A DNA stretch of 64,000 bases from Candidatus Nomurabacteria bacterium (lineage in GTDB: Bacteria; Patescibacteriota; Saccharimonadia; Saccharimonadales; VXPC01): contig JACKGQ010000001.1 in assembly GCA_020631905.1 (NCBI GenBank), positions 165,854-229,853 on the forward strand, written 5' to 3'. How positions within the stretch are numbered: position 1 is the stretch's first letter; the number at the start of each line of letters is the position of its first letter. The notes under the pieces are model-generated. The model was not told the origin of the DNA. It ran no database searches and saw nothing but the letters and a program-made list of their open reading frames with translations. This document shows positions 1 to 25,248 of the stretch, one piece after another. A program made the position numbers and the translations under genes.

Positions 1-948
1 GCGAGTTACGCGACGCTGCCGATAGAATATAGGTGCTTTAGGTTCATTGAGCTTTCTCAGGAGTGCGATGACTAGCAGAATTGGGGCTGCAAGTACAATG
101 CCAATTAACGAGATGGAAACATCCGCCAACCGCTTTGTAACTCTACCCCAACCGATTAGAGGGGTCTGATGAACAGATATCACTGGATATCCCAATAGTA
201 GTTCAACTGTATTCTTGCCCGTGTAAAACTCGGCTTGAGCCGGGATGAATTTGTACTGCATATGACGGTTGCGTACACTGGCAAAAAGTTTACGGTTGGT
301 ATCTTCGTTGTCGTACATTTCGGTCTGAATAATCGTATGAACTTTTAGTTTACCTGCGGCTTCGATTGCAGAATGTACATTACTAAAATGCTGACCCTTA
401 AAGCCCTCTGGCAAAAATTGTTTTGCACAAACAATTGCCGCGACTTTATAGCCGCTCCCGTAGGCAGCCTCAATCTGTTTAGCTATATTTATTGTCACTT
501 CCGAGCTGCCGATAATCATCACATTGCGCACACCGTAGCCGTAGCGAAACATATATGTCCGGAACATCCATAAAATATTTCGAGCTAAAAATAGCAATAT
601 GAAGGCCAAGAAAAATCCATAGACTGGAATTATTCGTGCCGGAAATATGGTATCGTCTTGAACAAAATCGTAACCAATGACTGTTAATATGCCTATAAAA
701 GAACCTACAAGCAGGCGAGCGGCTTCTGGTAAACGCTTTTCGTAGATCGACTTAGAATACAGGCCAAGTCCGGCGTTAACAATTAACCACATTGGCAAAA
801 TTAGAAGAAAGATTTTAATGAACTCAAGTGGCGGAATATCCCGTGCGAGTGGACTTTCACTAAACACTACACGCACGATGTAGGCAACTGTGAAGGATGT
901 TAGTAATGCCAAAAAATCGGTCAGAATTAATAAGCTCGGATAAATCAT
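1..948 (-). CDS. Polyprenyl glycosylphosphotransferase (bacterial sugar transferase, WbaP-like), first 316 codons; gene runs off the left edge
   Basis: Absent from the ORF track because its stop lies outside the window. Reverse-strand ATG at 948-946 opens an uninterrupted frame to position 1: MIYPSLLILTDFLALLTSFTVAYIV... (multi-TM N-terminus), NVMIIGSSEV (nucleotide-binding-like linker), ending ...KRLADVSISLIGIVLAAPILLVIALLRKLNEPKAPIFYRQRRVTR, the usual start of the Bac_transf catalytic domain. Confidence 0.7.
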   Translation of the reverse strand, partial: MIYPSLLILTDFLALLTSFTVAYIVRVVFSESPLARDIPPLEFIKIFLLILPMWLIVNAGLGLYSKSIYEKRLPEAARLLVGSFIGILTVIGYDFVQDDTIFPARIIPVYGFFLAFILLFLARNILWMFRTYMFRYGYGVRNVMIIGSSEVTINIAKQIEAAYGSGYKVAAIVCAKQFLPEGFKGQHFSNVHSAIEAAGKLKVHTIIQTEMYDNEDTNRKLFASVRNRHMQYKFIPAQAEFYTGKNTVELLLGYPVISVHQTPLIGWGRVTKRLADVSISLIGIVLAAPILLVIALLRKLNEPKAPIFYRQRRVTR

Positions 949-988
949 TTGGGCATATTATACACCTGCTGCGCTATAATTATTTGGT

Positions 989-2101
989 ATGTCAAAGCAA
1001 CCTAGAATCGCTATCGTCCACGACTGGCTGACTAATTTGGGTGGTGCAGAACGCACGGTCCGAGCTCTTCTCGATGCCTACCCTCGAGCCGATCTGTATA
1101 CCTCGGTTTACGACAAAGATGGTCTCGATCTGTTTCGAGATGTCGAAGTCAGAACCACCTGGCTGCAGAAAATTCCTGGCAAGCTTAAATTTAAGCATCA
1201 GCTCTGGGTGCCTCTCCGCCCGCTGGCTTTTCGTTCTTTAAATCTCAAAGATTACGACATTATCATCAGTAGTTCGAGTGCCGAGGCCAAGCAAGTGCGT
1301 GGCGGCTCTAGGACGGTCCATATATGTTACTGCCATACGCCAATTCGTTATTTCTGGGTTAACCCCGAAAAATATATGCGCGAGCCAGGTCTTGGACCTC
1401 TTAACTTTTTGGCGCCAGTTATTGTGCCCCTCTTCCTGAAGGCACTCAAAAGGAGTGACTACAAAGCAGCTCAGAAGATCGACGTGTTTATCGCCAATTC
1501 TAAGGCAGTCCAAAGTAGAATTGCCAAATACTATGATCGTGATTCAAAGATTGTCTATCCGCCCGTGCAAATCGACCGATTCCGGCAATCAAAGCCACCC
1601 AAAAGAGCCGGCTTTATAACTGCTGGCAGACAAGTCGCCTACAAAAGACACGACTTAGCAATCGAAGCCTGCAACAAACTTGAGTTGCCTCTACTAGTTT
1701 TAGGGAACGGCCCTGAACATGAACGGCTAAAACATATTGCTGGGCCGACAATAACCTTCAACTCGAATCCAAGCGATCAAGACATCGAAGGCGCCTTTAA
1801 GTCCGCACGCGCCTTTATACACCCAGGCGAGGAAGATTTCGGGATTACTCCGATCGAAGCTATGGCGGCAGGTACACCAGTAATCGCCTATATGGCTGGT
1901 GGCGCCTTGGATTACATCAAGCCAGCTATAAATGGAGAGTTTTTCGATCGCCAAACTCCTACTAGTTTAGAAAAAGCCCTGAAAAACTTCGATACGAAGA
2001 AATATAAACACAACATAGTCTCCCAGTCTGCCCTTGAATTTAGTCTAGAAAAATTCCAAAAAAATATCGCTAAGATTATTGATATGTCTACTCGACCGTG
2101 A
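989..2101 (+). CDS. Glycosyltransferase family 4
   Basis: 370-aa ORF. N-terminus IAIVHDWLTNLGGAERTV and C-terminal FIHPGEEDFGITPIEAMAAGTPVIAY (E-x7-E-type GT-B motif) are typical of GT4 enzymes. It sits next to the WbaP-like gene. Confidence 0.8.
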   Translation: MSKQPRIAIVHDWLTNLGGAERTVRALLDAYPRADLYTSVYDKDGLDLFRDVEVRTTWLQKIPGKLKFKHQLWVPLRPLAFRSLNLKDYDIIISSSSAEAKQVRGGSRTVHICYCHTPIRYFWVNPEKYMREPGLGPLNFLAPVIVPLFLKALKRSDYKAAQKIDVFIANSKAVQSRIAKYYDRDSKIVYPPVQIDRFRQSKPPKRAGFITAGRQVAYKRHDLAIEACNKLELPLLVLGNGPEHERLKHIAGPTITFNSNPSDQDIEGAFKSARAFIHPGEEDFGITPIEAMAAGTPVIAYMAGGALDYIKPAINGEFFDRQTPTSLEKALKNFDTKKYKHNIVSQSALEFSLEKFQKNIAKIIDMSTRP

Positions 2102-3890
2102 CCGATTTCGCCAAATTTCTAGGCTTATCAACGTCGTAACCAAGTTTGGTACCCGCATAATACGCCAGCAGCTGTACATAAATTGAAGTAGCAAACGGCT
2201 GTACATAGTCTTGGATTCCGGGAACCTTTATTAGGCACTTACTTATATCGCTAACATCACTAAGCCGATCACTGCCGAAAGCGAACACGGGACCCTTGCG
2301 AGCATGAACTTCTTGTAAGTTGCTGGCCGTCTTGTCGTAAACATCGTTATACGGCGCCAAAGCAATGGTTGCAAAATTATTGTCAATCAAGGCCAACGGT
2401 CCGTGTTTAAGCTCACCTGCAGAGTAGCCCTCCGCGTGGATATAACTCACCTCCTTAAGTTTCAATGCAGCCTCAAGAGATAACGGATACATATATTTTC
2501 TACCTATAAACACAGTATTTTTATAGGTAGAAATTTGCTCTGCCATTCTTTTGACAGCTTTGTGTTCGGCAAGCGCCTCACTCATTAAGTCCGGTATCCT
2601 AAGCAGAGCTTCGATTATCTCTCGACTTCTGACGCCTGAAATATACATACCTATCATATATAAACATACAACTTGGCAGACAAAGGCTTTCGTAGAGGCA
2701 ACACCGATTTCTGGACCAGCATGGGTATAGACCCCAGCATCTGTCTCACGAGCAATGCTGCTACCTACCACGTTTACTAAGCCCAAAGTTAATAATTTCT
2801 TTTGTTTGGCCAGCTTAACCGCTTCGAGTGTGTCCGCCGTCTCGCCGGACTGACTAATTGCGAGGATGGCCGTACGGCCATCTAGTGGCTCGTCATGGTA
2901 TCGAAATTCACTTGCCAATCGAACTTCGACAGGTATTCTGCAGTGTTCTTCAATAAAATATTTTCCAGTCATACCCGCATAGTAGCTTGTGCCACAGGCA
3001 ACAATTAGCAGACGGTCGACTGTTTTCAGTCTCTCGGCAACATCCTTCAATCCCCCCAGCTTAACCGTATCTCTTTCTGGCTTTACTCGCCCAGCCATGC
3101 TGTTTTTGATAGCATCTACAGATTCATGTATTTCCTTAAGCATAAAGTGGGGGAAGCCCTGCTTACTAAACTCCTCGTTGCTAATATTGATATCTTGCGC
3201 CTGCTTGTCTACAGGCAATATATTTAAGTCATATATTCTGATATCAGATCCTTCAATCTCGACGATCTCGTCGTCATCGGGGTAAATCGCTTTGTTGCAG
3301 CCCTCGGGTAGAGCGGATATGTCTGAAGCCACCGCGGCACCCTTGCCATCACTAGCCACCACCATCGGGCTAGATTTCCTGGCTGCATACAGTCGGTTTC
3401 CCTGCTCTGCCAATACCACAATTGCGTATGAGCCTTTAAGCTGCCTAACCGCATCTACCACTGCATCGCGCAAGGAACCTGTCTTCGAATAGAAGTAGTG
3501 TATAAGATTAGGGATGACTTCAGTGTCTGTGTTTGTCTTAAGTTTATAGCCATTATTCTCTAAGAATGTGCGTATGTCTTTATGGTTCTCGATAATCCCA
3601 TTGTGTACAACAGCGATGCTACCATCGTTGCAAACATGAGGATGGGCATTGGCAGCAGCTCCCCGTGGGTGGCCATCGCGCGTGGCCAATACCGATCGTC
3701 AGAAGAATCTCGTTCGGCAATGGGGCTCAAGCCCAGCAACAAATCCTTTGACCTTATGAACAAATATTTTACCCTCTCTCGAAGAACTGCAATGCCCGCA
3801 GAATCGTAACCGCAGTATTCAGGCTTTGGGCCTGAGATAAGTTTTTCCTGACTTTAGCGATACCTGTAACACTGCAATTATTCCGCACAT
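2088..3890 (-). pseudogene. glmS: Glutamine--fructose-6-phosphate aminotransferase (GlmS); the 5' ~250 nt is disrupted by several frameshifts
   Basis: The 533-aa ORF 2088-3689 carries NAHPH...VVHNGIIEN, two SIS domains and the C-terminal KPRNLAKSVTVE. The true N-terminus MCGIIAV starts at 3890. EYCGYDSAGIAV, GIGHARW, ATHG and AANAHPH lie in different frames between about 3640 and 3890, and there is a stop after 23 codons in the MCGI frame. Confidence 0.8.
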
Positions 3891-4539
3891 GGAATATGAT
3901 ATATACCAAATCAAGACCATATTGCTTAAATGTTGTCAAAAAGTTTCAGCAAGTTATCCTGCAGGCGGTCGTGTGTTTACGGTTATGTTATAATTTAGCT
4001 ACATAAAATTATTAATATGTCTAAAAAACTCACTTTTGACCACTACTACTCTTTGTTTTGCTTGCATTGGCTACTTTAGCTTATTAATTGGTTTGCGTCA
4101 AGATTCTCCCAAGCCAAGATAATTCATCGGACCCAAATGTTGCAACAAGGAATCAAATTGATTATTCCCCGAGTACTAAAAGACGCTGACTACGTTAGAA
4201 GTATCAAAAGATAAACTTTCGACAGACGCCAATGGAACAACCGAGCCAATCTACCGATGGTTCGATGTCAATCACAATTACGCGCAGTGTTTGGCAGCGA
4301 TACAGCGACGATTGGATCAAGAGCTAATTGGCTTTATCGCAGATTCTTGCACCACAAAGATTAGCGATGGCATGTCTCAGATAGAGGCAACATCTGTCGC
4401 GGTGTCGGCAAACGGAACGTATGGGTGTAATGCTAAGCTCAATACTTCAAGCCTTGGCAAAGATACTGACTGGATAGTTACCATTACTGCGAATGACGTG
4501 AATGTTTCGCAAACCTACTCTAGAGAGGAGGCGCGTTGA

Positions 4540-6561
4540 GTGAAAGGAAAGAAGTTTTAGGTGTTGCCCTGTTTTCTAGCCAGCATTGTTTTTGCCCTCT
4601 TAGCGCTTTCATGGGCTTAATGGTAATGATTTTCCTCACGGGAGGATAATCGATGATGTTGTATTTCGCAACAAAAGCTCAATGACCGTCCAAGAGATTC
4701 AGACCTTCCTAGAATCAAAAGTTAACGGAGGTGCCTGTGATCGATACCGAGCCGGCGTATAACTCTGGCTACAACCCCCTGGACGTGCTTATTTGAATTC
4801 AGGCAGAACGCCCGACAACTGGGGCAAATAACTATGGTCAATTTAATCCGGATGGCTCGCCCGCATCGGTTTCTGGTGGTCAATCTGCCGCACAAATAAT
4901 CTGGCAGGCAGGGCAAGACTACAACATTAACCCGCAGGTGTTAATTGTCTTACTCCAGAAAGAGCAAGGTCTAGTGACGGACAACTGGCCATGGACGATC
5001 CAATACAGCAAAGCGACCGGATACAACTGTCCCGACACCGCACCGTGTAATCCAGCGAGTGCAGATTTTGTAAAACAAGTTAGGGGTGCTGCCTGGTCGT
5101 TTAATTACTATATCGAGCATCTAGATAGCTACTGGTACGGGATAGGTAGCAACGATATCTTGTATAACCCAAATACCGCATGTGGCCGAAAAACGATTAA
5201 TATCGAAAATGCTGCTACTGTAGCCCTATACCTATATACCCCCTACACACCAAACCAAGCTGCCCTTGACTAATTTGCCTTACAGCACAGGCGACTCATG
5301 TAGCACCCTAGACAAATTTCTGGAGTATTTTAAGTAATGATTGGTTTTGGTACTTTTACACAACCTACCTATGCCACCTTGCCTTATACAAAGTTAGTGA
5401 GCTATAAGGGTTGAACAGTAGTTCAGACAAAATATCGACTGTCGAACTTTGTTTCTGGCTTAGTCCTCAAATATGGTATGACAGACAGGCTCGAACTGGC
5501 GACGCGCACCGGACGGGTTAGCAGGTCGTACTATGCACCAATAAACCTCTGGGCGGGAAGCAGCCAGTTTGGCTCACCTGCATGGGAACCAATGCTAATG
5601 TTCCCTGGTCGTGACTTCAGTGCAGTTTATGGACGGGGTAACACTTGCCAGCAACCAACACATGGCAGAACCCGGCGGGTAGTAAAGTATATATTCGATG
5701 TCTCCAGTATACGGCTCGATTGATCTATATACCGGCTTTAAACCTAGCCTGTTTCCAGAAACCAAATGAATTTAACAGGCCGTAAGTTTTGTTGATGTTG
5801 AGATAGTGCAAGTGACGCCTCTGCCGACTACTACAGGTATCGGCACCAATCACGTGATTCCTGGAACAACGGCGTAGAAGTGGAGCTATATAGTATGGGG
5901 AATGAGCAATACAAAAATGGTATGATCAGACCGCAACCGAAGGACAAATCTCAGAAAGACAATGTTATATACTAAGCCTATCGGGAACATCGACATTTTA
6001 CGGAATGCGTGGTCTAACACTGTGCCCTCTCCAGACTTCAGTGCAGTTTATGAAGCAGACAGGAGTAACACTTGCCCAGCAACCAACATGTCGCCAATCC
6101 AGGAGCAAATTGTAAAGTACGTCGTGACTCTAAGTGTGCCGATGAATACTCCTCGGTCAAATATCCTTGTACTTTCAGCCTTCACTGTTATTCAAAAGCC
6201 TGGCGTCATGAACGACGCTAACTCTTTATAGACAGATGTACAGAAACCAGTCTACGCCATGCTGTACGCTAAGAGTGTTGTCATCCTGCTCAGAATGTAC
6301 ATTCCGTCAACTAAAAACAGTGGCAATATATGGCTTGGTATGATCAAATTATCTATGGATGCGCCTTCGGGCACTAAGAAAGGTCTATCTCTGTATAAGC
6401 CCCTCGGAAACAGCTCACTATTTGGATCCAGCTGGGGAGTTAACAAGAATGTGCCTGGCTATAATTTCAGTAAAGTATATAAAGCGACAGGTAACGCGCA
6501 AATAACCAACGCATGTGTAGTACTGCCGGACCAAATCAAATCGATACGATGTAGAATTTAA
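4540..6561 (+). pseudogene. Secreted cell-wall-associated protein remnant with three C-terminal repeat modules
   Basis: Signal-peptide-like start, then SMTVQEIQTFLESKV, AAQIIWQAGQDYNINPQVLIVLLQKEQGLVTDNWPW...CPDTAPC...YTPYTPNQAAL, then TNLPYSTGDSCS / NFWSILSNDWF / GTFTQPTYA in three different frames within about 100 nt. Three downstream modules share a DFSAVY...NTC-type motif (ORFs 5478-5723, 5962-6231, 6259-6561). Confidence 0.45.
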
Positions 6562-9500
6562 CGGCCCTCGATATGTTGGCCGGGGAATATCGAACTAGGT
6601 TTAAGCCTTCATTGTTGTTCCGCGATGTCCGATCCTTTAACGACCCAACGCATCGTTTTATCGACATTACGATGACTATTAAAGTACTTCTTCAGCAATA
6701 ATTCTTGTGTATGGGTCTGCCGCTGTTGCCTTGCTGTCATGTGCTGCGGGTATAAAGTTGTCACGATTAATCACCCAGTCGATCATCATCTGAATAATCA
6801 TAAAAAGCAACACCACTTTCTTCCGCTATGCTTTTAAACTTCATCAGGATTTGATCGTAATTGAGGCTCCTGTAAATTTGATATTCTGGCGCATGGATAA
6901 TAAGATAAACCTTAATATTAGCTATTAGTTCCTTTAAGCTGTATGATGTCCTAGGAATGCGCATTGCAAAATCGTTCTCGATTGGGTAGATTTAAACCCC
7001 CTCAGGGTTGGCTTCGACAGATCATCAAACTTCATCCCAATCTTTGTCTAGCCAGGCCCTGCCTTTCGTCTCGATCTCGGGTCAGTTCTGATGCAGGTGC
7101 AATGGGTAATCAGTGATTGTTCGAGGCGGCTATCTTTATATAGCCCAAACTTATCATAATTACATATCTTAACTTTGTAAATACTGGATCTAGTTCTGAT
7201 AGTTGGTTGTACAAGATATCGTCAGATGAAGTATTATGGTACGCTACTGCTGAGGTCTGAATATTTTTATTATTGTCTGCTTATTGGGTACCAGTGATGC
7301 TGCAGCATCAAGACTAATAATGTTGTGCTCGGTGCTGTTATGCCTGAGATATGCAGGACAAATTAGTGGTTAAAACATGTGTCACTACCATTCAAACCAG
7401 AATTAATGGTCTCTGTATGTTGTCAGTGATTCGATTAAGCTGCAGTCGTAATGCACCAATGCCATGTGATGATCAACGACAGCTATATCGGCGTCGATCT
7501 TTCCATCGATTGTCCATATGGCATAATCATTCTGAGTTAGCATTTTTGGGGAATCGCTGATCTCGGCAGCTTGTCGACTAAAAACAATCAAGTATTAAAT
7601 ACCCCGAAGATATCGGAATAAGACTCTGAATAATTTGGGAACTGAAATAGATAGATTCATTGTGAATCTCCATAGTTATTACTAACAATATCGACAACGT
7701 GTAGATGTTTCACCTCAGCCACGTAATGGGCAGCCTAGGAATTTTTCTGGGATATCGCCGTTCCTCTGGCCCAGGTGAACAAGTTCCGCAACTGCGATCA
7801 CAATCAACAGGATTATGATCTCCTCTTTCTTACTGAACCTCGCAGAATCGGGCCAACTTGTCTAAAGACACTAAGTTACCTAGGTCTTTTAACAAATCCA
7901 TCGATGACGTCTGCTCAGACTTGATTATATAAATGCATCGAATCGAGGCTGCTCGAAAAATATCCAACCCACACATACGAGTATATGCTCAAATTATGAA
8001 TTACCCTCCATAACATCTGAAGCGACCCGACTTTCCTCCTAGCCATTCTTTTTTGCCTTAGTCTATGTGCACTCCGGTAATGATTCCAGCGAATGCTAGG
8101 TAAGACCCGTGCAGTAATCCCCAAAAGATAAATGTTAACGCAGCACCATGCATAGCCCACTAAAGGTTATCATCAAGTTGTAATACCATCTCATAACAAC
8201 GCGGTTACCGCCAAGCGGTATATATAAATAATCAATCTCTAAACTTCAGGTTGATATGAAATGTGCCATCGACCAAAATTCAGATATCGACGAAATATAG
8301 CCGATCAATTCTTCATTAAATCGTGGCCAAGTAGTCTATGAGCCTATCGCAATGTCAGAATACCCAGAAAAGTCTCCAAGATCTGAAAGGCGATACTCAA
8401 TAACGAGCGTTAGCCATCGTACGAATGTTAAAGGTTATTATTGAATATCTCGTTGGCAATTACGCTCTGTCGCTTAATAGCCACTTTCTTAAATAGTCCC
8501 CAAACAATCAGTATCAAGCCACTCCTGATCCGCTCTAGGTCAGGCTTAATTTTCTTTTTTAGTTGTGGCAGTAATCTAGACGACCTCGATTGGGCCGGCT
8601 ACAAGTTGTGGAAAATAATACATACAACGCAAAATACCAAGGTGCTTTTCTGGTTTTATTTTTTCTTATATACATCGATGGTGTAGCTCATCTCGTCTGG
8701 AAATGATATAGAAAGATATGCCTACAAGGCAGGGGGTGAGTTGAGGGCGATATCTGGATAGTTCCAGCCGATTAAGTTTATAATATCAGTGAGACGTTGA
8801 AAATTGAAATACTTAAACAAAATAACAAGCCAAGGTTAGACATCAGACTTACATATAGCCATTTACGTCTATGCTTGGCGTTTCTCTTCGACATCATTAA
8901 GGATGCTGTATGTAGTCAATGAGGTTGACGCGACGATTAAGAAATGAATTTGCATTCCAACTCATATAGAATGTGTAGCTAGCACCCAATAATAAACCAT
9001 CGAACCTATATGGTGATGAGTAATACAACAAGAATACGGTCAGTAAAATATCGGAAGGTACGAGAACGGGTTAAATAACAAAATGTATGGCCTCAAATTA
9101 ACGCATGGGATTCTATCAACTCTCCGATTGAATTAAAATTGTTATTTGTCATCTATTTTTCTTTAAAATTTTCATGAATTTATATAGCATTATCGAGGAC
9201 TAGCTGATGTCATACCACAAAAAGCAAAGACATTTAAATGACAAAAAAAGAACTCAAGCTGGCTGAACAACTAGCCGTTGAAAAAATAAGAAATGTACAA
9301 GCAGTTTGTATGATCTAGAATTGGAGAGTTTTAGAACCATAAACTTTATAAAGATTCGTAAAAAATCCTGTCAAAGGATTTACTTCTAACGACCGAAATA
9401 CCATCCCTACTAAAGCGGGCGGAAAAATCTACCTTCCTTCTGAAATGCCGACAGCCAAGATTTTCTAGACAACGCATAGACGGACGTGATAGGCTTATCA

Positions 9501-10379
9501 AAATACTCCCCCTTTAAATGGTACCCCCGTTAAAGTTGCCGTAATTGGCGAGGTCGACTGGCTGAACACCATTACACTATTATTACCTTTCAAGATAAAT
9601 TCCGGCCCATGGGAATATTGCCGAGTTGGCATAGAAATGCTGGTAATTAACCCTGGTAGCAAGTCAGTAGCTTTCCAGGCAATACATCCAATTCAGCCAT
9701 CTGCAAAAAATTTATCAACGCAGGCGTGCTGCCCGGTGATTTATTGGCTAAGTAAGCGCAACCTTGACGACCCACTCTATTTATTAAACCACCCATATCA
9801 TAGGTACAAGCCTTAACAAACAATTCAGTATAAAAACAAGAAGTTATCAGCATCCATGTTTTGTTAATCCATTAAAACAAATCAAAAACTGGTCTCTGAA
9901 GTCGCCCAAAGATACGATTTGTCTTTAGAGGCTGATCCAATAACCCTAAAGTTGATCTCAAGCTAGCAGGCGCTTCAACTTCGGGAATCCATCACAACTC
10001 AAGAAAGCCAATCAAGCTGCACTTGATATAGTAAATTTTAAGTCCGAAGAACTGGAAATTGGTCGCTACTCCACACATCGCAGTTGGATGTCCTGCGGTC
10101 GCAAAGCCCAATATTCGAGCAGGTTATTCATATCCATACACATATACGTCTATAGATAAAAGCAAACCGCTCGACAGATTGAGCGAAGGCCGTTCTGTTT
10201 ATTGATGGCGTCGGGGGTGATGATTTTTGCATCGTTTCTAGGCATTTAGGGCTCTTCCTCTTGGAGTCCTAGGTGTAGACCTAAGACCCTAGAAATATCG
10301 ATTATTCTCTCGACCTCTAGACAGGAGCACATCAAGCATGCACTCCGAAAATATTAATCGCCAAATATGAAAACAAAAG

Positions 10380-10930
10380 GCTGGTAATGGTGTTGCGGTG
10401 ATACCGGTTTTTAACATAATAGCCGACATCAAGAAGATTGCGTCAAGTTACCGTTCAACGCTAAAGGTTATTAGCCGGCCGAGCAGTATTGGTATTTTTA
10501 GCGAGAACCTTAATCTCGCCCTAGACGAAAAGTACTGGTGACCTGATCACTAAAATGGATGATGATGACTGGTATGGACCAGAACACCTATAGACGACCT
10601 GTACGCCCGCCCTGATCTGCTCAGACAGCGCCGGATTGTTGTAAAATGGGGTAACTTTGTTTACTTGTCTCAGACTGATGGGAGATGCTGGTTGCCACAA
10701 AACGAAGAGACCTACGTGATACCAGCTCCCAGGCGCAACGATTATGGCCTCCCGCGATATAATGAAAAAATGAGATTCGGAATTGTAAAACGAAACGACT
10801 CAGAACTTCACCGGCTAGCAATGCGGGCAGTAGGCTCTGCTATCAACGCACAGATATATGCTTTATTAGAGTTCATATGATAATCCATACCTACAAACAA
10901 GAAGATGAAGCATTTCTAGCAGATGCCGAT
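10380..10930 (+). pseudogene. Glycosyltransferase family 2-like remnant
   Basis: (V)IPVFN-like start near 10400 and ITKMDDDDWYGPEHL (10546-10590) followed directly by TAG. Frames break on both sides. Confidence 0.4.
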
Positions 10931-11025
10931 GGCAGCCCATGGGACAACCTAGACCTTAAAAACACTTTTATTTAAATGCCTGCTTCAATATAATCGCATA
11001 TACTCATGTAAGCTTAAAAGTGTAG

Positions 11026-12300
11026 ATGAAAGTTACTGCTGTTGTGGGTTTATGGGGTATGTTGGGTTGCCCTTCTTTGCTACAACTAGCAAGAATGGTT
11101 ATGATGATGTATGGGAGATTGTAGATTTAGATGAATCAAAGTCGGTTAATAAATAGCGGTAGTCACCATTTGTTGACGGTATGTCCGAATCTATGTCTCC
11201 AACAAGATCAAAGTATTCGACATATCAAATATAAGTGACTCGGATATTATTGTGTCATGTCTGTGTTCAACTCCGGTAAAAAACAGTATCAGGCCAGATC
11301 TTGAACCACGCCAAGGCGCCATTTTGAAACATTGGCTCCACCTAAAGGGGTGCCCTACTGGTATTGAATTGAAATCAACGATTAACCCGGGTGTCTGCGA
11401 AGCAATAGTAATCCTTGATGGAAGAATGCGGTAAGTCACTTCTAGCTACATGATCCGCTCATTGTCCGGAAGAATAAACCCTGGTGATCCTAAGTGGAAC
11501 GTTGGCAACATAAACCGAGTGGTTGGCGCCGACAGTAAGGAAAGCTCTAGGTGTGCTTATTTGATCAGGTTTATAAGCATCGTGAACAGCACCATAAAAC
11601 CAATGGGGTCGAATAAAACCGAGGCAGATTAAGGTCGTCGAGAATTCATTTAGAGATATAAATATTGCTTTCGTTAATGAGTTAGCTATGTCTTTCTCAA
11701 AGAATGGATATCAATATCGAGAACGTAATAGACGGAGCAGCCACAAAACCTTTGCATTTATACCCACACCGTCAGTGTTAGTGTTAGTAGACACTGCATC
11801 CCAGTTGACCCATACCTATCTAATCGAATATACCCCGCGGTTATGGTTTCGAGCGCATGATTTTCTGCGTTTGTAAGAAGAATAAACAGTTTATGTATAC
11901 TGTCGAGTTGTTAATCGATTCACTCAACAAAGGCTGAACTGCCAGTTAAAACACTAAGATTGCGCTTTCTGCTGGACTTTCTACAAAACCAAACGTCGAT
12001 GATGATAGTAAAGGCCCATCCTACGAAGTTAAAAGCTGTTGCCGCACTGAACCTGGAGCAAGATTTGAATGTCTATGATCCATTGCTAAAACTCCAGCTA
12101 CCTCAATCTAAGCACTCAAGTGTCGGCCGTACTAATCGCTACTCATCACGACCTATTCAAAAGAAAATCAAAACAAAAGTCAGTTCAAGAACATCGTAGT
12201 AATTGATGGACCTGCCGCATATAAGATCGTCGCCAAGAATTTGAAAAGGCAAATATTATTTACAGAGGTTGGAATTAGTAGTTCCGCATTAAAACTGCCA
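11026..12300 (+). pseudogene. Nucleotide-sugar dehydrogenase (UDP-glucose/GDP-mannose dehydrogenase family) remnant
   Basis: MKVTAVVGL.GYVGLP-like Rossmann start at 11026. SFRDINIAFVNELAM, GIDV-like and GGHCIPVDPY-like blocks (read as RHCIPVDPYL near 11790) are recoverable only across multiple frames and stops. Confidence 0.55.
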
Positions 12301-13737
12301 GACAACATTCTGCCTTATCCACATTGTGCTCGAAATCAGGAAATTGCTTTAGCCCACTTATTATTAACTATATTGGTCTCAGCACCTGTTAGAGTCGTCG
12401 GGTCGCAAGAGCCTTTCAGCATTCTTCCTACAAGTCTTGGGAGTGCTGGATATCTCACTTCATCCTGTACTGACTCAGGGGCCCATCGGCCTTACTAGGT
12501 CGACTGTCGTTGAAGTGAGTCTTCGTCCATAACCGAAATTACCAGCTGTGCGTGTGCGCTTACCGAACTGTTTGGTAGAGTGGTCGCTATAGGACTCGTT
12601 ATATCTGCTCCCATGAGAGTCTTTCTGGTTTCGAAGCAAAAGTTCTTCGTTATCAGATGAGGTTACTTTGCACCGCATAGCTGGCGGCACTTGTCAAAAC
12701 CATGGTAGAGACCCGCTACCAAACTCAACTATATTCTTGGGCTTAGCTTGCTGAACGTATCTAACCAGAGCCAATAGAGGCATCAGGCGACGCCCTGGTG
12801 GTTCTGCTTTAGCTAAAAATATCTTTACCGACTATGTCTCTCTGAGTTTATAAAGCCTCGATCTGCTTATAGATTGGTATTGTATCGTGTTTGAGATTCT
12901 AGCCTCTAGATGTCTTTGACTCTTTGGTATAGATCCTTGTGGTGGGAGTAGCTTTTATGCGTCAAGTTCTTTCTCAGCGACCTATCTATATGCTGCCTGA
13001 GGTCGTCGCGACTACGATAGCTAACATTTTTATATAGTCTAATGACCGCATAATAAGCAGCCTAAAAACATACCAAGAACGATGGCGATAATTGTATCCT
13101 CAATATTCATAACAAAGCGTATTTACTGCAGCATCCTAGTGTTTTTGATTCGTTGTGCGTAATCTTAGGATTCAGCAAATGCGGTAGGCAGGATTTTCTT
13201 TATGCCCTAATAACACCTCTTCTGAAACCGTCCTCGGTGGTTTCTAGATCTATAATAGCCAATGTCTGCGATTTATCACCATGACAGTTACGTTGTCGTT
13301 GATAACGCACATATTGACGACAGGCGACCAGTCTCTGTGTTTCATCAGTTTCTCGTTTGGAACCATGTGAATGCTGCTTCAAGAACATGCGTATCGCACT
13401 ATGGCGCCACTCCACCGTTTATTAAAACTTTTTCGCTGTTGCCTCTGCGTCCCGCTTTAGATGCATACAGCGCCAGATCTCGACTGTCAGGACAAGCATC
13501 CAACTAAGACGATTATCAGCTTCTATTATGATTTTAGGATAATCTAGCCTGGTCTCGTCACGCAAATTCACGCGAAGCGAGTTTCCGGTATCCATACAGT
13601 AAATTCTTCTAATTTTCACAGGCCTTTATTTGGGTCATGTGGTTTCTATCTGCCTGTTACCCTAAAATAAATACATTCATCCTAGACGATGATAATACCA
13701 TTTTGAGTCTGATTATTTGTGGTATAATATCACTTTA

Positions 13738-14543
13738 ATGGCAAATACAATACAGTGATTACCTCCAAACCGTACGGTCGCGCCGGTTTGGGAGCGCAGA
13801 ATTGTTGTACTTCTTCGTGGAACTTTAGGTCCGCTACAAGCAAACCGCAATCAGCGGCGCGCTCTGGGCTTTATGTTTAGACCACTGATCTTAATGGTAG
13901 TAATGATATTGCTTACAGCCTTCAATAAGGTCGCCAACGTCAACACCAGCTCATCTGAGATTCCCTATCAATCTTTGCATACGCTGGGCTGATGTGTACT
14001 GGTCCTACTTCTCACAAACCGTCACACAGGTCGGTGGAAGTTTAGTTTTCGTATCAGGGCATAATAAGATATATTTTCCACGCCTCATGATCCCCGTATC
14101 TACAATAACAGGGATGATTGATTTCTTTGCAGCCATAATATACACTTAGCTATGTGTTTTATTTCGGGTTTACCCGAGGTATCTTAGGGATGATTATGCC
14201 TGCTACCAATGCTGCTACTTCTGGCATTGTAGCAACACTAGGGTGGTTTTATACATGGCCTCGTTAAATGTCAAATACCGGACGTCGTTAGTGCCATTCT
14301 TCGATACCAAGCCATGCTCTTCTTGACGCCAGTTGTCTGTCAGGTCGGGCAAAATTGCAATGGTTATAAGTGGGTACTATACTAAACTGTAATATTTAGA
14401 GTCGTAGACACAATCACGGGCGTCTTTACTAAATATACCTACGGCCAGTCAACTATAGATTCCTGTCGATATCAATAATCCATGATCTTGTGATATTATT
14501 CTTGGCCTTGGTATGTTCAAGCCAAAGAGATTGCCGACATCAT
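13738..14543 (+). pseudogene. ABC-2 type polysaccharide exporter permease (Wzm/TagG-like) remnant
   Basis: TATAAT at 13723-13728 and ATG at 13738. An N-terminal RYKQT-like block and hydrophobic segments are readable in alternating frames. It lies immediately upstream of the Wzt-like remnant. Confidence 0.45.
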
Positions 14544-15321
14544 ATGAAAAGAATCAGCCGATCATGAAGGCATAACCAAAGAATACTTATTGATTAATAC
14601 AAGGCGCTCTCAAATTCACCCACCCTTAAGGATCCTTAACTTGGTCGATATGCTGAAAACCACTTGAGCTAATCGGAGCTAAGGGTAGGTTCTCATGAAA
14701 AAATTTTATACTCCTCGATAACATAAATCTGCAAATAATGCGGGGATGTGGTCGGTTTAATGGGCAAGACAGGTCTATTGAAATCGGCTTTGTTGAAGAT
14801 CGCTCTAAAATTACCCAGCCATCAGATGGCAGCATACATATGGGCAGCACCATGGCAAGTCTGCTGGAGGTAAGACTGGCTTTCATCAGGCTAATTAGTC
14901 GTGAAAACGTTTACTTTAATGGCTCGACCACTTGTGAGCAAGAAGGGAGATCGATAAAAGTTCCAGGTATCGTGGATTTTTCTGAGGTAGAGAGAAGTTT
15001 CTAGACACACCGTGAAATTCTACTCATCTGGTATGAAAATTCGGCTTGCGTTTTCTGTTGCAGCCCACTTTAAGGCCGACATCCTGATGATTGACGGGGT
15101 TTTATCGGTTGGAGACGTGAAGTTTAAACAGAAGAGCCTTGCCGGAATGAAAGACATAGCAAAAAGTGGAACAACAATTATTTTTTGTTAGCCGTGTAGT
15201 CTCCCAATTTCGGAAGATTTGCACTGGGGTTGGCCTGGAGAGCGGCGAGATATGTTTGACGACGCTTAGCAATCTCAAGGACGCCATATCTCAATACATC
15301 TCGCTAAACGGTAAGCTCTAA
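14544..15321 (+). pseudogene. Polysaccharide/teichoic-acid exporter ATP-binding protein (Wzt/TagH-like) remnant
   Basis: Walker-A region split across frames (GLMGKTG / KSALLKI). ITQPSDGSIHMGSTMASLLEV, SRENVYFNG and IVDFSEVERSF are readable. The clean stretch 15009-15190 reads TVKFYSSGMKIRLAFSVAAHFKADILMIDGVLSVGDVKFKQKSLAGMKDIAKSGTTIIFC then stop. The C-terminal tail is in another frame and ends at 15321. Confidence 0.65.
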
Positions 15322-15682
15322 AGATGAGCTTAGTTCAAAGATAGTCGATAAATGAAACATCCAACTTAAGCTGAAGACTCGATTATTGAGGATAGCGTCG
15401 AGATATCAGTTAAGCCGAAGTTGAGTCAAATCTGGCTGGTGATCTCCCAACTAGATCTCGACTAAAGATTGTAAACAACCAGACAGACAGGCGAATTTCT
15501 AGTCCGTTCGTATACCTAATCATTTCTGATGCGAAACCACAACCTTGCATCGATAGGCAGATTCATCGTAGCCCTGGGCACTAAGAGGCTAAATCATAAA
15601 GATAATTAATATCAACACCAGAGTTAGGGACGTTAGTAATTTAACACCATAGGTACAACGCGTGCTTTATTTTTATTGTGAA

Positions 15683-16870
15683 ATGGAAAAACAGAAGATA
15701 CTGTTTACCGTGAATATATGGTTGCAGAATTTTGATATCCAGATTATCAGGCCTTACGAGATCTTATGTGGAATAGAGTTATGTTGCCCATTGATATTAA
15801 ATTATAAAGTTAGCCGATTTTCTTGCCCTAAATCGCCAGGTGGAGCAGAAATGTCAATAAAACAGCACACCATCTATCTCGAAAACTCGGACATGAAGTA
15901 TTAGTATTCTTAACAAACTATGACCTTAACTGGTTCCGCACCAAGAGACTCAATCCCAGGTAACCACCATCTCCAGCTAATCATCGGTTTGCGGCTGCCG
16001 CTTTACCATCTTTCATAAACCAGATGTATAACCCACATTCAAGATTGGCCAGATTGTTTTTCGGTAATGGCAAAACCGCTTCACAGTAAGCCTGTTGTTT
16101 GAAGATGCTGGAGACTTAGTTCACCAGATATCAACAAAAACCAAAATATTTTTGGAAGGATAGTTAAGTCTCTGTACGCAAAATCAACGACAAAAGCAGA
16201 TCATATATATACCTAAACAGCGACGAAATTCAATTATTAAAACTGTCCTCGAGCTTACGAAATTGGAATATATCGAATATTAAAATCTCAGTTATACCGA
16301 GCGATATAGATTTCGCGACTACAATCTCATAGCGCCAAAGTCCGTCAATAAAGATGCCGTTTATGGTTGGATATGTGGAAGGATTGATATACAAAACTAA
16401 GGGGTATCTATATGAACTCTTGAAGCAATGGAAATCTAAAGCACGAAAGATTAATTTACTGGCTGTAGGTGCCGGAGACTTCGATAATGCTGAAAAATAT
16501 TTGGGACAAAGCTCAGGTACGGTTTGTTGTAGCCATCAAAATTTCTAGTTATATGCATGTAGTTTTTGATCACTGGTAGTTCCATGTCACATTTTGAGGG
16601 ATGGGGTCGAACTGTATAAGGCGATGTATTTTGGGTTGCCAGTTATCGCCACCGGATTGGAGAACTAAAGATCAAATTGACGACATAAGACCCAGGACTT
16701 TTCACTACAGGCGAACCTCAAGACATTGCTAGAAAAATCACTCTATCTAAGACAACATCCAGATTTCAGCAGGTGGTATGCTGTGGCGAAAAACAGAAGA
16801 TCCAAAGCTGGAACATGAGTCCTCATTAAAGACCGTGTTGAACCCTACTAATAGCTTTTACAAAAGACTG
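15683..16870 (+). pseudogene. Glycosyltransferase family 4 remnant
   Basis: MEKQKILFTVNIW start at 15683. GT4 C-terminal motifs (FEGWG.. / AMYFGLPVIATG) near 16590-16660 are interrupted by stops and frame changes up to about 16850. Confidence 0.5.
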
Positions 16871-16871
16871 T

Positions 16872-17990
16872 ATGAGATACGTCTTTGAGTCTTCTCGGTT
16901 AACCCAGACAATGACTGGAGTTGGCTATTACGCCGCCTACCTGTCTGAGGAACTCCAACGGATATCTGGTTCGGAGCAGGTCCGATGTGGTTTTAGAGAC
17001 GCTAAATCAGACAGAAACACGTTAGTCACAAGAAGAGTGGCTTATAAGTTATTAGCGTTTAACATTAGACTACCCTTCCAGCTGCTCTGGGGAACAGGCT
17101 ACAAGGCTGCTATTTTTCCAGACTTCAATGGTTTTGGTAACTGGTCGAAAAAAACCAAAACAGCCGTTGTTGTACACGATACAGAGTTTATCACTAACCC
17201 AAGCTCTCTTGATAACAAGCGGCAAGGACTAATGTCTTATTTATTGCCCACGGGCTCCGACTACCTTTGCCGTACGGTACCTGGGTCGATGAGAAGAGCG
17301 GACATCGTTATAACTACTTCTGCAACGGTCAAAGAAGAGTTTGTTAGACTGCTAAACATCGATTCGTCAAAGATTGTCGTCACCGGTATCCCGCCGCACC
17401 CAATCTATGCACCTAGCGCCAACAGACCAGTGCTGCCCTTAAATTTAAAATCCAGGAAATTCATATATTACCAAGCAACTATAGAGCCTAGAAAGAATCA
17501 CATGAATCTACTCAAAGCCTACGAGCTGTTGCCAAATAAGATTTCCTCAAGATATCCCTTGGTGCTCGGCGGAGGATATGGCTGGGGTAATAGACAATTC
17601 TTTAGCTACATAAATAAACTGAAGGAAAAAGGCTACATGATCTACCACCTGGGTTATGTTGATGAGGCCACCAAGCTGGTTATGTATCAGAACGCCGCCA
17701 TCTATGTGCAGCCATCTTTAAACGAGGGCTTCGGAATGCCTATACTCGAGGCCATGGCTTGTGACACCCCTACAGTCGTGAGTGACATACCAGTATTTAG
17801 AGAGGTCTGTCGAAAAGCATCGATTTACTTCGACCCCAAGAGCTCGGAAGCCATTAAAGAGGCGATCCAGACAACCCTGCTAGATAAAAATTTATTAAAA
17901 GAGCTGGTAAAAAAAGGAAGATCTAGGGTAGATTCTTATCGCAAAGATGATTCGGGCTTTAAGGAAATCGTCGAAAGGCTTGGTATTTAA
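16872..17990 (+). CDS. Glycosyltransferase family 4
   Basis: Intact 372-aa ORF. TGVGYYAAYL N-terminal motif and VQPSLNEGFGMPILEAMACDTPTVVSDIPVFREV GT-B C-terminal motif. Confidence 0.85.
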   Translation: MRYVFESSRLTQTMTGVGYYAAYLSEELQRISGSEQVRCGFRDAKSDRNTLVTRRVAYKLLAFNIRLPFQLLWGTGYKAAIFPDFNGFGNWSKKTKTAVVVHDTEFITNPSSLDNKRQGLMSYLLPTGSDYLCRTVPGSMRRADIVITTSATVKEEFVRLLNIDSSKIVVTGIPPHPIYAPSANRPVLPLNLKSRKFIYYQATIEPRKNHMNLLKAYELLPNKISSRYPLVLGGGYGWGNRQFFSYINKLKEKGYMIYHLGYVDEATKLVMYQNAAIYVQPSLNEGFGMPILEAMACDTPTVVSDIPVFREVCRKASIYFDPKSSEAIKEAIQTTLLDKNLLKELVKKGRSRVDSYRKDDSGFKEIVERLGI

Positions 17991-19114
17991 TGTCCAAAAT
18001 CCTAATTGATGCTCGAGACATGCGTTCGAGCACTGGCAGGTATATTCGTTCGCTGCTCATGGAACTCGAACGACTCGATAGAACAAATCAATATGTGATA
18101 TTGGGTCGAAGAGCCGATGTCGATGCGCGCGACCAGCATAGTTGGAGGCCAAAGGCGCCAAACTTCAACCTGGTAGTAGTTGACATACCCCTGAACACCT
18201 TTAGGGAGCAGTTGTTGCTGGCTGCAGAAATAAGAAAACACAGTCCCGACTTAGTACATTTCTGGCTTCCCCAGCAGCCACTTTTCTTGAAGCACAGCAG
18301 GATCACCACCATCCATGACCTTAATTATATCCACCTACATATCCATACAAATGGCATTTTACGATATGAGTTGAAGCGCTTAATATTTAGGGGATTTCTT
18401 AAGCACGTTGTTCGTTCGAACAAATTTATTCTTAGCCCGACAAACTACACCAAACAAGATATTGTTGACTACACCAAATTAAGAAATCCCGAAAAGATTG
18501 TTGTTACGCCTGAAGGAACCGCCGGTGAATTGGCTAACGTTAAGCCAAAACATATCAATCAGCTCAATGGTAAGGAATTCCTCCTATATGTTGGCCAAAG
18601 TTCAGAGTATAAGGGTCAGCTAAGATTAATTGAGGCTCTACAGTTACTCCGAAAGAAGCTCCCGAGACTAGAGCTCGCTTTAATCGGTAAAGAGAACGAC
18701 TACACTCAGAAGCTCAAAAAGATTGTTGCCAAACAGAACTATCATGGTGTTAGGTTCTTAGGGTTTGTCGATGACCGAGAGCTACGCTGGGCCTATGAAA
18801 ATTGTGCATGTTATGTGCAGCCATCAATTGCCGAAGGCTTTGGATTGATGAACCTCGAAGCAATGTTCTTAGGTGCACCAGTAGCTAGTAGTAATGCTAC
18901 TTGTTTGCCCGAAGTTTCAGGAAGTGCAGCCAACTACTTTAATCCATATGATATAGGGGATATGGCTCAGGCGATTGAGCAGATCTTGAGTGATCCAAAA
19001 TTGCGCAAGAAGCTTATCTTAGAGGGCAAGAAACAATATAAAAAATTCTCCTGGGAGCGCATGGCCGAGCAAACATTAGCGGTGTACAATAAGGTCTTGG
19101 ATGAAAAAAACTAA
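17990..19114 (+). CDS. Glycosyltransferase family 4
   Basis: 374-aa ORF with a TAATG junction to the upstream gene. VQPSIAEGFGLMNLEAMFLGAPVASSNATCLPEV motif. Confidence 0.85.
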   Translation: MSKILIDARDMRSSTGRYIRSLLMELERLDRTNQYVILGRRADVDARDQHSWRPKAPNFNLVVVDIPLNTFREQLLLAAEIRKHSPDLVHFWLPQQPLFLKHSRITTIHDLNYIHLHIHTNGILRYELKRLIFRGFLKHVVRSNKFILSPTNYTKQDIVDYTKLRNPEKIVVTPEGTAGELANVKPKHINQLNGKEFLLYVGQSSEYKGQLRLIEALQLLRKKLPRLELALIGKENDYTQKLKKIVAKQNYHGVRFLGFVDDRELRWAYENCACYVQPSIAEGFGLMNLEAMFLGAPVASSNATCLPEVSGSAANYFNPYDIGDMAQAIEQILSDPKLRKKLILEGKKQYKKFSWERMAEQTLAVYNKVLDEKN

Positions 19115-20000
19115 ACCTATTCGTAAAGCAGTAATCGCTGCTGCTGGTTTTGGTAGTCGTTTTTTGCCACAGGTAAAAGCTATGCCAAAAGAGATGTTGC
19201 CACTAGTAGATAAGCCGGTTATCCAGTACGTGGTCGAGGAGCTGGTGGAGGCTGGGATCGAAGATATCATTATCGTGACCGGTGCCAATAAACGCAGTAT
19301 CGAAGATCATTTTGATCTGCCCAGCCAGGATCTGGTCGAGAACCTCAAGCGAGGCAACAAAATCGACCAGCTCAAAGAAATTGAGGCAATTGCAGGACTT
19401 GCCAATTTTGTATACATTCGCCAAAAAGGTCCTTACGGTAACGCCACACCGCTGTTATGCGCCGAACACCTAGTCGACAATGAGCCATTCATCTACACCT
19501 TTGCCGACGACTTTATCGCCGCTTCACCGAATCGCTTTACCCAACTAATCGAGACCTACAAGCAGCAGCAGTGTTCGGTTCTCGCAGCCATCAAAGCAAC
19601 CAAGGACGATGACTACACACGCTATGGTATGTCTGGCGGAACCATGCTGTCCGAGACCGTCATGGACACAAAGGTTATTGTTGAAAAGCCCGGTAAGGCT
19701 AAAGCCCCGTCGAATGTATGTGTTGTGAGTGGCTACTTGTTTACGCCGGAAATTTTTAACTACCTCCATGTAGCCCGAGGCAATAAGCCAGATGATGTTG
19801 AAGTTGGCTACACCGATGGTCTAGAGTTGATGCTTAAAGACAATCACCGGGTAGTGTCTAAAATTATCGAGAATGGTCGATACTTTGACTCTGGCAATAA
19901 ACTAGAATATTTAAAAACAGTCGTTGAGTTCGCGGCTATGAATCCAAATATTGGTGAGGAGTTTAGGCAGTTCTTAAAAACATTTGTTAAAGAAATCTAG
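19101..20000 (+). CDS. galU: UTP--glucose-1-phosphate uridylyltransferase
   Basis: KAVIAAAGFGSRFLPQVKAMPKEMLPLVDKPVIQYVVEE is the canonical GalU N-terminus. 299 aa; overlaps the upstream GT4 gene by 14 nt. Confidence 0.9.
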   Translation: MKKTKPIRKAVIAAAGFGSRFLPQVKAMPKEMLPLVDKPVIQYVVEELVEAGIEDIIIVTGANKRSIEDHFDLPSQDLVENLKRGNKIDQLKEIEAIAGLANFVYIRQKGPYGNATPLLCAEHLVDNEPFIYTFADDFIAASPNRFTQLIETYKQQQCSVLAAIKATKDDDYTRYGMSGGTMLSETVMDTKVIVEKPGKAKAPSNVCVVSGYLFTPEIFNYLHVARGNKPDDVEVGYTDGLELMLKDNHRVVSKIIENGRYFDSGNKLEYLKTVVEFAAMNPNIGEEFRQFLKTFVKEI

Positions 20001-20176
20001 CCTGAATATATACTTACATCGCCAGTTCATAAACAAGCTAATCGACAGCGGCCGAGTAGGAGACTTAATCAAACATCTTGGTCAAAAAAATTTAATTTAA
20101 ATTAAATTTCATACTAAATAACAGTTACTTTTCTAGATAGACCACCGCCCCAACGACTAGTCAACCGAAAGTGACA

Positions 20177-20647: not shown

Positions 20648-20648
20648 A

Positions 20649-21590: not shown

Positions 21591-21611
21591 ATGTGGGTAT
21601 ATTTTAACAAA

Positions 21612-21956: not shown

Positions 21957-22026
21957 TCTATTATTAAAGCAAAAATATTCTATAAAAATAACCACTTTTG
22001 TCGTGGTTATTTATTAACTCAGTCTA

Positions 22027-25216: not shown

Positions 25217-25248
25217 GCCTTAAGTTGCTATCAGCTAAAATATACTAG

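Follow-up and report, generated by a model that had tools for sequence, protein, structure and literature searches.

Positions 3612-16863 of the window (the whole 64,000-nt stretch of DNA analysed here) are in all likelihood an assembly artefact, with a probability of approximately 0.97: essentially raw Nanopore sequence inserted as a bridge by Unicycler and never corrected with short reads. The first-pass annotation had offered two explanations without choosing, an uncorrected stretch of assembly and a recent wholesale inactivation of a surface-glycan cluster. The former is confirmed by short-read contigs that carry an intact version of the locus and are identical to its flanks, by errors of a Nanopore-like spectrum and by the way in which, according to the source paper, the genome was assembled. 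The latter is refuted, because two short-read assemblies with 100% identity to the flanks carry the same locus in intact form. What had been said of indels and of glycan content also stood, while the description of the genes as remnants was wrong: they are not decayed, and are intact in the short-read assemblies.

Results

An ORF-poor stretch with sharp boundaries

The stretch covers 13,252 nt (13.25 kb). In the interval bounded by the truncated glmS ORF (minus strand, 2088-3689) and the GT4 gene that starts at 16872, the longest ORF initiated by ATG, GTG or TTG encodes 111 aa, in agreement with the ORF desert previously described at about 3640-16870. Stop-free length was at the level of shuffled sequence (longest run of 158 aa in 3612-16863 vs. 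128 ± 21 aa in 200 shuffles), while the longest stop-free run in all other 13.25-kb windows was 646-1284 aa. Stop-free runs of at least 150 aa held 4.4% of the bases in the stretch vs. 88.9% in the remaining window, which is as gene-packed as had been stated. GC content was steady over both boundaries. Rfam detected three tRNAs only in the whole window, and neither these nor any other Rfam match lay in 3612-16863.

The damage had been reported to start inside glmS and to end just before an intact GT4 gene; these edges were refined to 3612 and 16863. On the left, the first mismatch to the short-read contigs is at 3612 and mismatches are dense from 3654, within glmS. On the right, the final mismatch (16863) is 9 nt upstream of the GT4 start codon (16872). 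Both boundaries are step functions, with 0 differences in the flanks vs. approximately 60 per 500 nt between them. Positions 4810-6056, which have no short-read reference, were assigned to the noisy stretch by inference. All the peptide blocks named earlier were located in the stretch: the Wzt block (32 residues) at 15021-15116, MKVTAVVGL at 11026-11052, ITKMDDDDWYGPEHL followed by a stop at 10546-10590, LIVLLQKEQGLVTD at 4941-4982 and CPDTAPC at 5028-5048.

The locus is intact in short-read assemblies

The references were Logan short-read contigs: L001 from run SRR12358675, and L007 and L008 from run SRR12358676. They cover window positions 2033-4809 and 6057-19114 with complete genes, and L001 and L008 are 100% identical over 10,641 nt. 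Both short-read assemblies harbour an intact ORF for every gene covered, including GlmS (602 aa), MBOAT, GT2, UDP-sugar dehydrogenase, Wzm, Wzt and GT4, and the disruptions seen in the window were not reproduced. The protein of the intact GT4 gene at 16872-17990 was present exactly on a Logan contig.

Considering the 100% flank identity and the two Illumina datasets of the source paper, both runs are probably linked to BioProject PRJNA648801; a full-text literature search for the two run accessions found no paper. A contig search with GlmS returned only distant relatives (33-42% identity) and no close genome. Neither the left-flank GT4 (989-2101) nor the truncated GlmS (P0001) was on record when its exact protein was looked up, and a homology search with the 111-aa ORF (4938-5273) yielded the deposited protein itself and, beyond that, only homologues of at most 80% identity.

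Gene content beneath the noise

The features of the region are listed in Table 1. In glmS, all 12 frameshifting indels lie past 3612. As the 5' end of this gene (approximately 280 nt) falls in the noise, the deposited 533-aa protein with a TTG start (MCB9821101.1) is a false truncation. Both short-read contigs end inside the gene at 4540-6683: L007 terminates with a partial protein of 90 aa and L008 with one of 213 aa. Probably the whole interval is one gene, whose large product would be secreted and internally repetitive; a repeat search revealed a weak direct repeat, spaced at 428 nt, inside this gene, and Tandem Repeats Finder found nothing in 4500-6800.

On the intact Logan contigs, the Wzm and Wzt genes adjoin with a 4-nt overlap. 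GT2, three GT4 enzymes, the UDP-glucose/GDP-mannose dehydrogenase, an NTP_transferase and GlmS are co-located with them. As had been proposed, the true content of the region, judged by the Pfam domains of the intact Logan genes, is a predicted Wzm/Wzt ABC-transporter-dependent surface-glycan locus, intact in this organism. It shares with Wzm/Wzt glycan loci an ABC2_membrane Wzm and an ABC_tran/Wzt_C Wzt (the Wzt_C match being weak), together with glycosyltransferases, a UDP-sugar dehydrogenase, an MBOAT, a sulfotransferase-like protein, a nucleotidyltransferase and an adjacent glmS.

Table 1. Features in and around the noisy stretch (window coordinates).
Feature	Position	Strand	Remarks
Clean left flank	2033-3611		0 differences to Logan contig SRR12358676_1003908 (L007) over 1579 nt; short-read-quality sequence
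glmS	2088-3890	-	True product 602 aa (MCGI... start), intact as P0121 on L007; Pfam GATase_6/7 + SIS
Noisy stretch	3612-16863		Very probably an uncorrected Nanopore-derived bridge; identity 87.6% over 7027-16863, 92% over 3612-4809
Hypothetical gene, 172 aa	4017-4540	+	Intact on L007; 14 frameshifts in window; no Pfam hit
Clean patches inside noise	4320-4528 and 4613-4753		Runs of 209 and 141 nt without error, against a mean error spacing of 13 nt
Large secreted repeat protein gene (probable)	4540-6683	+	Contains LIVLLQKEQGLVTD...CPDTAPC domain; homologues P0124-P0130 align in frame 2, then 3
DUF1574-like, 329 aa	6667-7659	-	55 frameshifts in window
MBOAT-family membrane O-acyltransferase, 449 aa	7635-8965	-	PF03062 on intact Logan gene; 73 frameshifts in window
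GT2 glycosyltransferase, 588 aa	9238-10975	+	PF00535; 89 frameshifts in window; contains ITKMDDDDWYGPEHL block
UDP-glucose/GDP-mannose dehydrogenase, 422 aa	11026-12281	+	PF03721/PF00984/PF03720; 72 frameshifts; starts with MKVTAVVGL
Hypothetical gene, 282 aa	12278-13110	-	47 frameshifts in window
Sulfotransfer_4-like, 183 aa	13136-13680	-	PF17784, E = 2.8e-8; 35 frameshifts in window
Wzm-type ABC-2 permease, 276 aa	13738-14547	+	PF01061; 49 frameshifts in window
Wzt-type ABC ATPase, 431 aa	14544-15813	+	PF00005 + weak PF14524 (Wzt_C); 62 frameshifts; holds the 32-residue Wzt block
GT4 glycosyltransferase, 368 aa	15802-16875	+	PF00534; 62 frameshifts in window; last error at 16863
Clean right flank	16864-18582		0 differences to L001 over 1719 nt; includes intact GT4 gene 16872-17990
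Second intact GT4, 374 aa	17990-19114	+	Contains right breakpoint (~18384) of strain-variable glycan island

Error spectrum inside the stretch

The window differed from the short-read contigs by 12.4% in the stretch (substitutions 3.8%, insertions 3.6%, deletions 5.1%); 1290 positions differed in 7027-16863 and 99 in 3612-4809. The damage was dominated by indels, as previously noticed: there were 588 indel events vs. 392 substitutions in 7027-16863, 8.5% of the indel lengths were divisible by 3, and the genes within 6667-16875 carried 35-89 frameshifts each. The differences disregard codon position and gene boundaries. Substitutions numbered 128, 131 and 115 at the three codon positions (p = 0.56), differences amounted to 12.9% in coding DNA vs. 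14.0% in intergenic DNA, and the synonymous fraction (0.243) was equal to the random expectation. Spacing was Poisson-like (CV 1.01), with a difference every 13 nt on average. A<->G changes outnumbered C<->T changes (249 vs. 60), the A<->G excess being present in all six blocks along the 13 kb; the directional counts were 118 G>A vs. 33 C>T and 87 A>G vs. 18 T>C. Homopolymers of at least 4 bases harboured 18% of the 1-nt deletions vs. 7% of all reference bases. Deletions thus exceeded substitutions and substitutions exceeded insertions, A<->G far exceeded C<->T, and deletions were homopolymer-linked, which is the signature of a Nanopore read strand.

In Nanopore reads, deletions are the most frequent errors, A<->G errors occur 3-5 times as often as transversions, C<->T errors are just slightly above transversions, and about half of the errors are homopolymer-linked (Delahaye & Nicolas 2021, PMC8486125). 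The stretch resembles this raw R9-era ONT profile in the order of its error types, in the dominance of A<->G with C<->T barely raised, in its homopolymer-enriched deletions and in the even spread of its errors. The total error was higher (12.4% vs. 6-8% in PMC8486125, obtained with the later Guppy HAC basecaller), yet it is in line with the long reads of its own dataset (87.6% identity vs. 86.7% mean accuracy). Programmed frameshifting and the use of an alternative genetic code were also considered and rejected: the frame changes are due to approximately 590 random indels relative to the intact reference, and not to a recoding signal.

The left 1.2 kb was cleaner (92% identity, two error-free patches), indicating that the bridge is not uniformly raw. 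The two patches were probably polished locally or covered by more than one read, and partial Pilon polishing or a multi-read consensus could account for the cleaner 1.2 kb. Homologues matched 4872-5270 in a single frame, with no frameshift.

The glycan island is strain-variable

Contig L009 (GCA_020428525.1) was 99.85% identical to the window over 18384-29716 and unrelated upstream of 18384. In the GT4 protein encoded at 17990-19114, residues 132-374 were identical to L009, while residues 26-131 were approximately 50% identical. On this sequence comparison, MAG GCA_020428525.1 carries a different cassette left of 18384, and the glycan island is strain-variable. The existence of such a MAG in another assembly, together with four SNPs that distinguish the window from L001 and cluster at 18583-18640, just right of the 18384 breakpoint, might suggest that long reads of at least two strains with different glycan cassettes collapsed into one consensus and that the noise is an artefact of this mixture. 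However, we consider this very unlikely. The alternative cassette has no detectable DNA similarity left of 18384 (L009 vs. L001), so reads of the two cassettes could not merge into a co-linear consensus. Moreover, the window aligns end to end with one cassette, its differences are even and random, and the noise stops at 16863, 1.5 kb before the island boundary.

Discussion

Origin of the stretch

The contig containing the window (770,081 bp) belongs to MAG HK-STAS-PATE-41, from an organism with a community share of 0.037% in Hong Kong activated sludge (Liu et al. 2021, PMC8518188, Table S3). In the same study, PromethION reads had a mean accuracy of 86.7%, and Unicycler 0.4.8-beta served both for the assembly of the bins and for their later re-assembly "to bridge the gaps" (PMC8518188). 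At dead ends in the short-read graph, Unicycler puts the long-read consensus in directly (Wick et al. 2017, PMC5481147). With this re-assembly step and its documented bridging, the pipeline was able to insert long-read sequence directly.

An uncorrected bridge would have formed as follows. The short-read assembly graph would have had a gap (dead ends) at the glycan locus, Unicycler would have spanned it with PromethION (R9-era) long-read sequence, and this bridge would afterwards have been left uncorrected by short reads. The gap probably arose from the rarity of the organism (0.037%), read subsampling and the strain-variable glycan locus. The Logan contig ends do not coincide with the noise boundaries; consequently, the breaks in the graph of the authors, which was based on recruited and subsampled reads, must lie elsewhere. 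As in a Unicycler dead-end bridge (PMC5481147), the stretch has sharp joins to short-read-quality sequence and a long-read level of internal error, but it is unusually long (13.25 kb) and almost unpolished, with approximately single-read accuracy and, towards the left, a few clean patches. We infer that it derives from about one read in '+' orientation, the estimate of a single read coming solely from the match between its identity and the mean read accuracy.

An unlikely rival: biological decay

GTDB places the genome in the Saccharimonadales, family SZUA-47 (class Saccharimonadia), and its NCBI label is Candidatus Nomurabacteria bacterium. Bacteria of the class Saccharimonadia are host-dependent, which bears out the host-dependent lineage suggested by the first-pass annotation, and surface-glycan loci belong to the class of loci that host-dependent bacteria do lose. 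As the stretch is ex-coding, coincides with a surface-glycan locus and lies in a strain-variable region, the contig could in principle be faithful and record a recent inactivation, in one episymbiont strain, of the entire cluster for export and modification of a surface glycan. This appears extremely unlikely, because a divergence of 12.4% beside 0 differences in flanks of 1579 and 1719 nt is beyond ordinary mutation, indels exceed substitutions (588 vs. 392) with 35-89 frameshifts per gene, and the strand asymmetry, with A<->G four-fold over C<->T, fits the Nanopore basecalling bias. Furthermore, the identity level equals the raw-read accuracy of the study, and the intact allele was recovered by both short-read assemblies.

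In real decay, substitutions accumulate too, flanking neutral sites are affected and the damage is reproduced by independent sequencing. The spectrum found here is not of the decay type, being richer in indels than in substitutions and strand-asymmetric, with zero divergence in the flanks. Pseudogene-rich loci of Mycobacterium leprae and Sodalis glossinidius are superficially alike, since there, too, stops and frameshifts break up readable protein blocks and the lineage is host-dependent. By contrast, the stretch has identical flanks, more indels than substitutions and independent assemblies in which the genes are intact. The chance that the read is faithful, and represents a rare sub-population of the Saccharimonadales episymbiont with hundreds of small indels in the glycan locus, is close to nil; if true, it would mean an unknown, locus-targeted, indel-generating hypermutation, with the intact allele in the same sludge.

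Consequences for the databases

The stretch, best explained as an uncorrected Nanopore bridge, is not a real feature and is useful only as a caution for databases. A false 533-aa GlmS (MCB9821101.1) has entered the deposited record together with small "hypothetical proteins" that are spurious, H6798_01005 (111 aa) being one of them, while about a dozen real genes, including those of the Wzm/Wzt exporter, are missing from it. These errors spread into nr and protein clusters. The partial 23S listed for the same MAG is a candidate for a further bridge. The same caution applies to other Unicycler-bridged metagenome assemblies, which could be screened for such bridges without a reference by means of shuffled-level ORF content, sharp boundaries, indels in excess of substitutions and a strand-asymmetric A<->G excess. 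As the locus is ordinary and intact, the desert has no biological importance, and any pseudogene load, glycan-pathway loss or "genome decay" in Patescibacteria read from this MAG would be misleading.

The ORF desert and its intact counterparts in short-read contigs

The ORF desert described in the first-pass annotation was confirmed: from the truncated glmS ORF to the GT4 start at 16872, all initiated ORFs were 111 aa or shorter, and the peptide blocks quoted there were all found at their places. Stop-free stretches in 3612-16863 reached at most 158 aa across all frames, within the range of mononucleotide shuffles of the same segment (128 ± 21 aa), compared to 646-1284 aa in all other 13.25-kb windows. 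Stop-free runs of 150 aa or more took up 4.4% of the bases in this segment vs. 88.9% elsewhere. GC content did not shift across the desert boundaries.

An exact-protein look-up with the GT4 at 16872-17990, which is the nearest intact gene on the right side of the desert, identified L001 (Logan contig from SRR12358675), in which the genes are complete in the 10 kb upstream of the GT4 match (see table). L008 (Logan contig from SRR12358676) was 100% identical to L001 over 10,641 nt and carries the reference leftward as far as window 6057. The 90% cluster of the truncated GlmS contains P0121, a 602-aa Logan protein starting with MCGI, whose contig (L007, also from SRR12358676) spans window 2033-4809. 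Short-read references covered 2033-4809 and 6057-19114, the sole uncovered interval being 4810-6056. We infer that both runs belong to PRJNA648801. Positions 4540-6683 probably represent one large secreted-protein gene with a conserved LIVLLQKEQGLVTD...CPDTAPC domain and internal modules recurring approximately every 428 nt; homologues of its protein had no Pfam assignment.

Features of the window and of the contigs compared with it
Feature	Position	Strand	Length	Observation
Truncated glmS ORF	2088-3689	minus		left edge of desert
Noisy stretch	3612-16863		13,252 nt	first to final difference
MBOAT			449 aa	intact on L001
GT2			588 aa	intact on L001
UDP-glucose/GDP-mannose dehydrogenase			422 aa	intact on L001
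Hypothetical protein			282 aa	intact on L001
Sulfotransferase-like protein			183 aa	intact on L001
Wzm			276 aa	intact on L001
Wzt			431 aa	intact on L001
GT4			368 aa	intact on L001
GT4	16872-17990			right edge of desert, exact protein match on L001
Second GT4 gene	17990-19114			island breakpoint near 18384
L009 cassette	1-10014 (L009)			methyltransferases, 703-aa GT2, sulfotransferase, Wzt/Wzm, 329-aa GT2, 349-aa GT4
Segment without convincing ORF	52619-53388		770 nt	longest ORF 98 aa, minus strand
ORF	56836-59172	minus	778 aa	weak TPM_phosphatase domain match only

Distribution and kind of the differences

Differences between the window and the short-read references followed a step function. 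There were none in the left flank (2033-3611, 1579 nt); the first occurred at 3612, they became dense from 3654, and the 1719 nt beyond the final one were again identical to the reference. Identity over 7027-16863 was 87.6% (substitutions 3.8%, inserted bases 3.6%, deleted bases 5.1%), with 588 indel events, chiefly of 1-2 nt, and only 8.5% of indel lengths divisible by three. The differences pay no regard to genes: substitutions were spread over codon positions 1/2/3 as 128/131/115 (chi-square p = 0.56), their synonymous fraction (0.243) equalled the random expectation, the difference rate was 12.9% in coding vs. 14.0% in intergenic DNA, and event spacing was Poisson-like (mean 13 nt, CV 1.01). 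Each gene carried 35-89 frameshifting indels. We know of no mutational process that yields such a pattern beside flanks of zero divergence. The left 1.2 kb was cleaner: identity there was 92%, no errors occurred in the patches 4320-4528 and 4613-4753, and homologues aligned in one frame without frameshift over approximately 4872-5270; this suggests local polishing or more than one read in support.

Substitutions were strand-asymmetric (G>A 118 and A>G 87 vs. C>T 33 and T>C 18). Over the whole referenced part of the noisy stretch A<->G exchanges numbered 249 vs. 60 for C<->T, and the excess was present in all six blocks along the 13 kb. Since the asymmetry keeps its orientation throughout, the whole stretch is likely to stem from a single read, or from reads that share an orientation, in the '+' direction. 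Deletions outnumbered substitutions, which outnumbered insertions, and 18% of 1-base deletions fell in homopolymers of at least 4 bases, vs. 7% of all reference bases. This spectrum is the Nanopore read-strand profile of Delahaye & Nicolas 2021 (PMC8486125), in which deletions are the commonest error, followed by mismatches and insertions, A<->G confusions reach 3-5 times the transversion frequency while C<->T lies slightly above transversions, and homopolymers are linked to about half of all errors.

Two explanations had been proposed, an uncorrected stretch of assembly and a recent wholesale inactivation of the locus. The second fails every test run: independent data do not reproduce the disruptions, the spectrum is indel-dominated and strand-asymmetric, and the flanks show zero divergence. 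The intact genes in short-read contigs and the Nanopore-like errors uphold the first. The noisy stretch is no biological feature; failures of this kind are documented for hybrid assembly.

Provenance and origin of the noisy stretch

The truncated GlmS (MCB9821101.1) and the GT4 (MCB9821107.1) share one 770,081-bp contig with locus tag prefix H6798. The assembly is MAG HK-STAS-PATE-41 (Liu et al. 2021, Microbiome 9:205, PMC8518188, Table S3), comprising 2 non-circular contigs (835,140 bp in total, the largest 770,081 bp; GC 0.449; CheckM completeness 55.98%; relative abundance 0.0368%). Its NCBI label, 'Candidatus Nomurabacteria bacterium', does not match the GTDB placement in the source table (Saccharimonadia; Saccharimonadales; f__SZUA-47). 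Bins were assembled with Unicycler 0.4.8-beta, and a Unicycler re-assembly was then run 'to bridge the gaps' (PMC8518188). Since the 87.6% identity comes near the raw-read accuracy of the dataset, the 'consensus' in the stretch would effectively represent about one read. Short reads facing approximately 20 differences per 150 nt were probably unable to align in the final Pilon step, and the noise would therefore outlast polishing. The source table also gives only a 'partial' 23S rRNA (PMC8518188), which may point to a further long-read bridge left unpolished in another part of the contig.

Position of the gap in a strain-variable island

Short-read graphs usually break at strain-specific islands and repeats. 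L009 (JAGQMU010000067.1), a contig of MAG GCA_020428525.1 from another assembly, matched window 18384-29716 at 99.85% identity (17 mismatches, no gaps). The part of L009 upstream of 18384 is a cassette unrelated to that of the window, with Wzt/Wzm in the opposite orientation. By this comparison, the glycan locus is a strain-variable island. The second GT4 gene is a mosaic, because residues 132-374 are identical to L009 up to the C-terminus while the N-terminal part (residues 26-131) is approximately 50% identical. Just right of the breakpoint, four clustered substitutions at 18583-18640 (A>C, C>T, T>C, G>A), the only window-L001 differences outside the noisy stretch, are probably strain micro-heterogeneity. 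Two of the Logan contigs, L007 and L008, stop within the repeat-containing gene at approximately 4540-6683. The rarity of the organism (0.037% of the community), subsampled reads and the strain-variable locus may together have placed the gap here, with partial support.

Other segments of the window

The segment of the 778-aa ORF has a GC content of 58-59% vs. approximately 45% elsewhere and many overlapping shadow ORFs on both strands, and may be foreign or compositionally unusual. The segment without a convincing ORF gave no match in an Rfam search; it is flanked by a 369-aa gene with a P-loop motif (GARQVGKT) in its translation and by a 285-aa gene that, judged from its translation, may have an N-terminal HTH and a HAD-like domain.

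Implications

The true content of the stretch, as predicted from its genes, is an ordinary Wzm/Wzt ABC-transporter-dependent glycan locus adjoining glmS, near the dnaA-dnaN-recF origin region. In practice the finding serves as a warning: a truncated GlmS that is false, together with spurious small ORFs, has entered the GenBank record and the protein databases downstream of it, and about a dozen real genes are missing from them.
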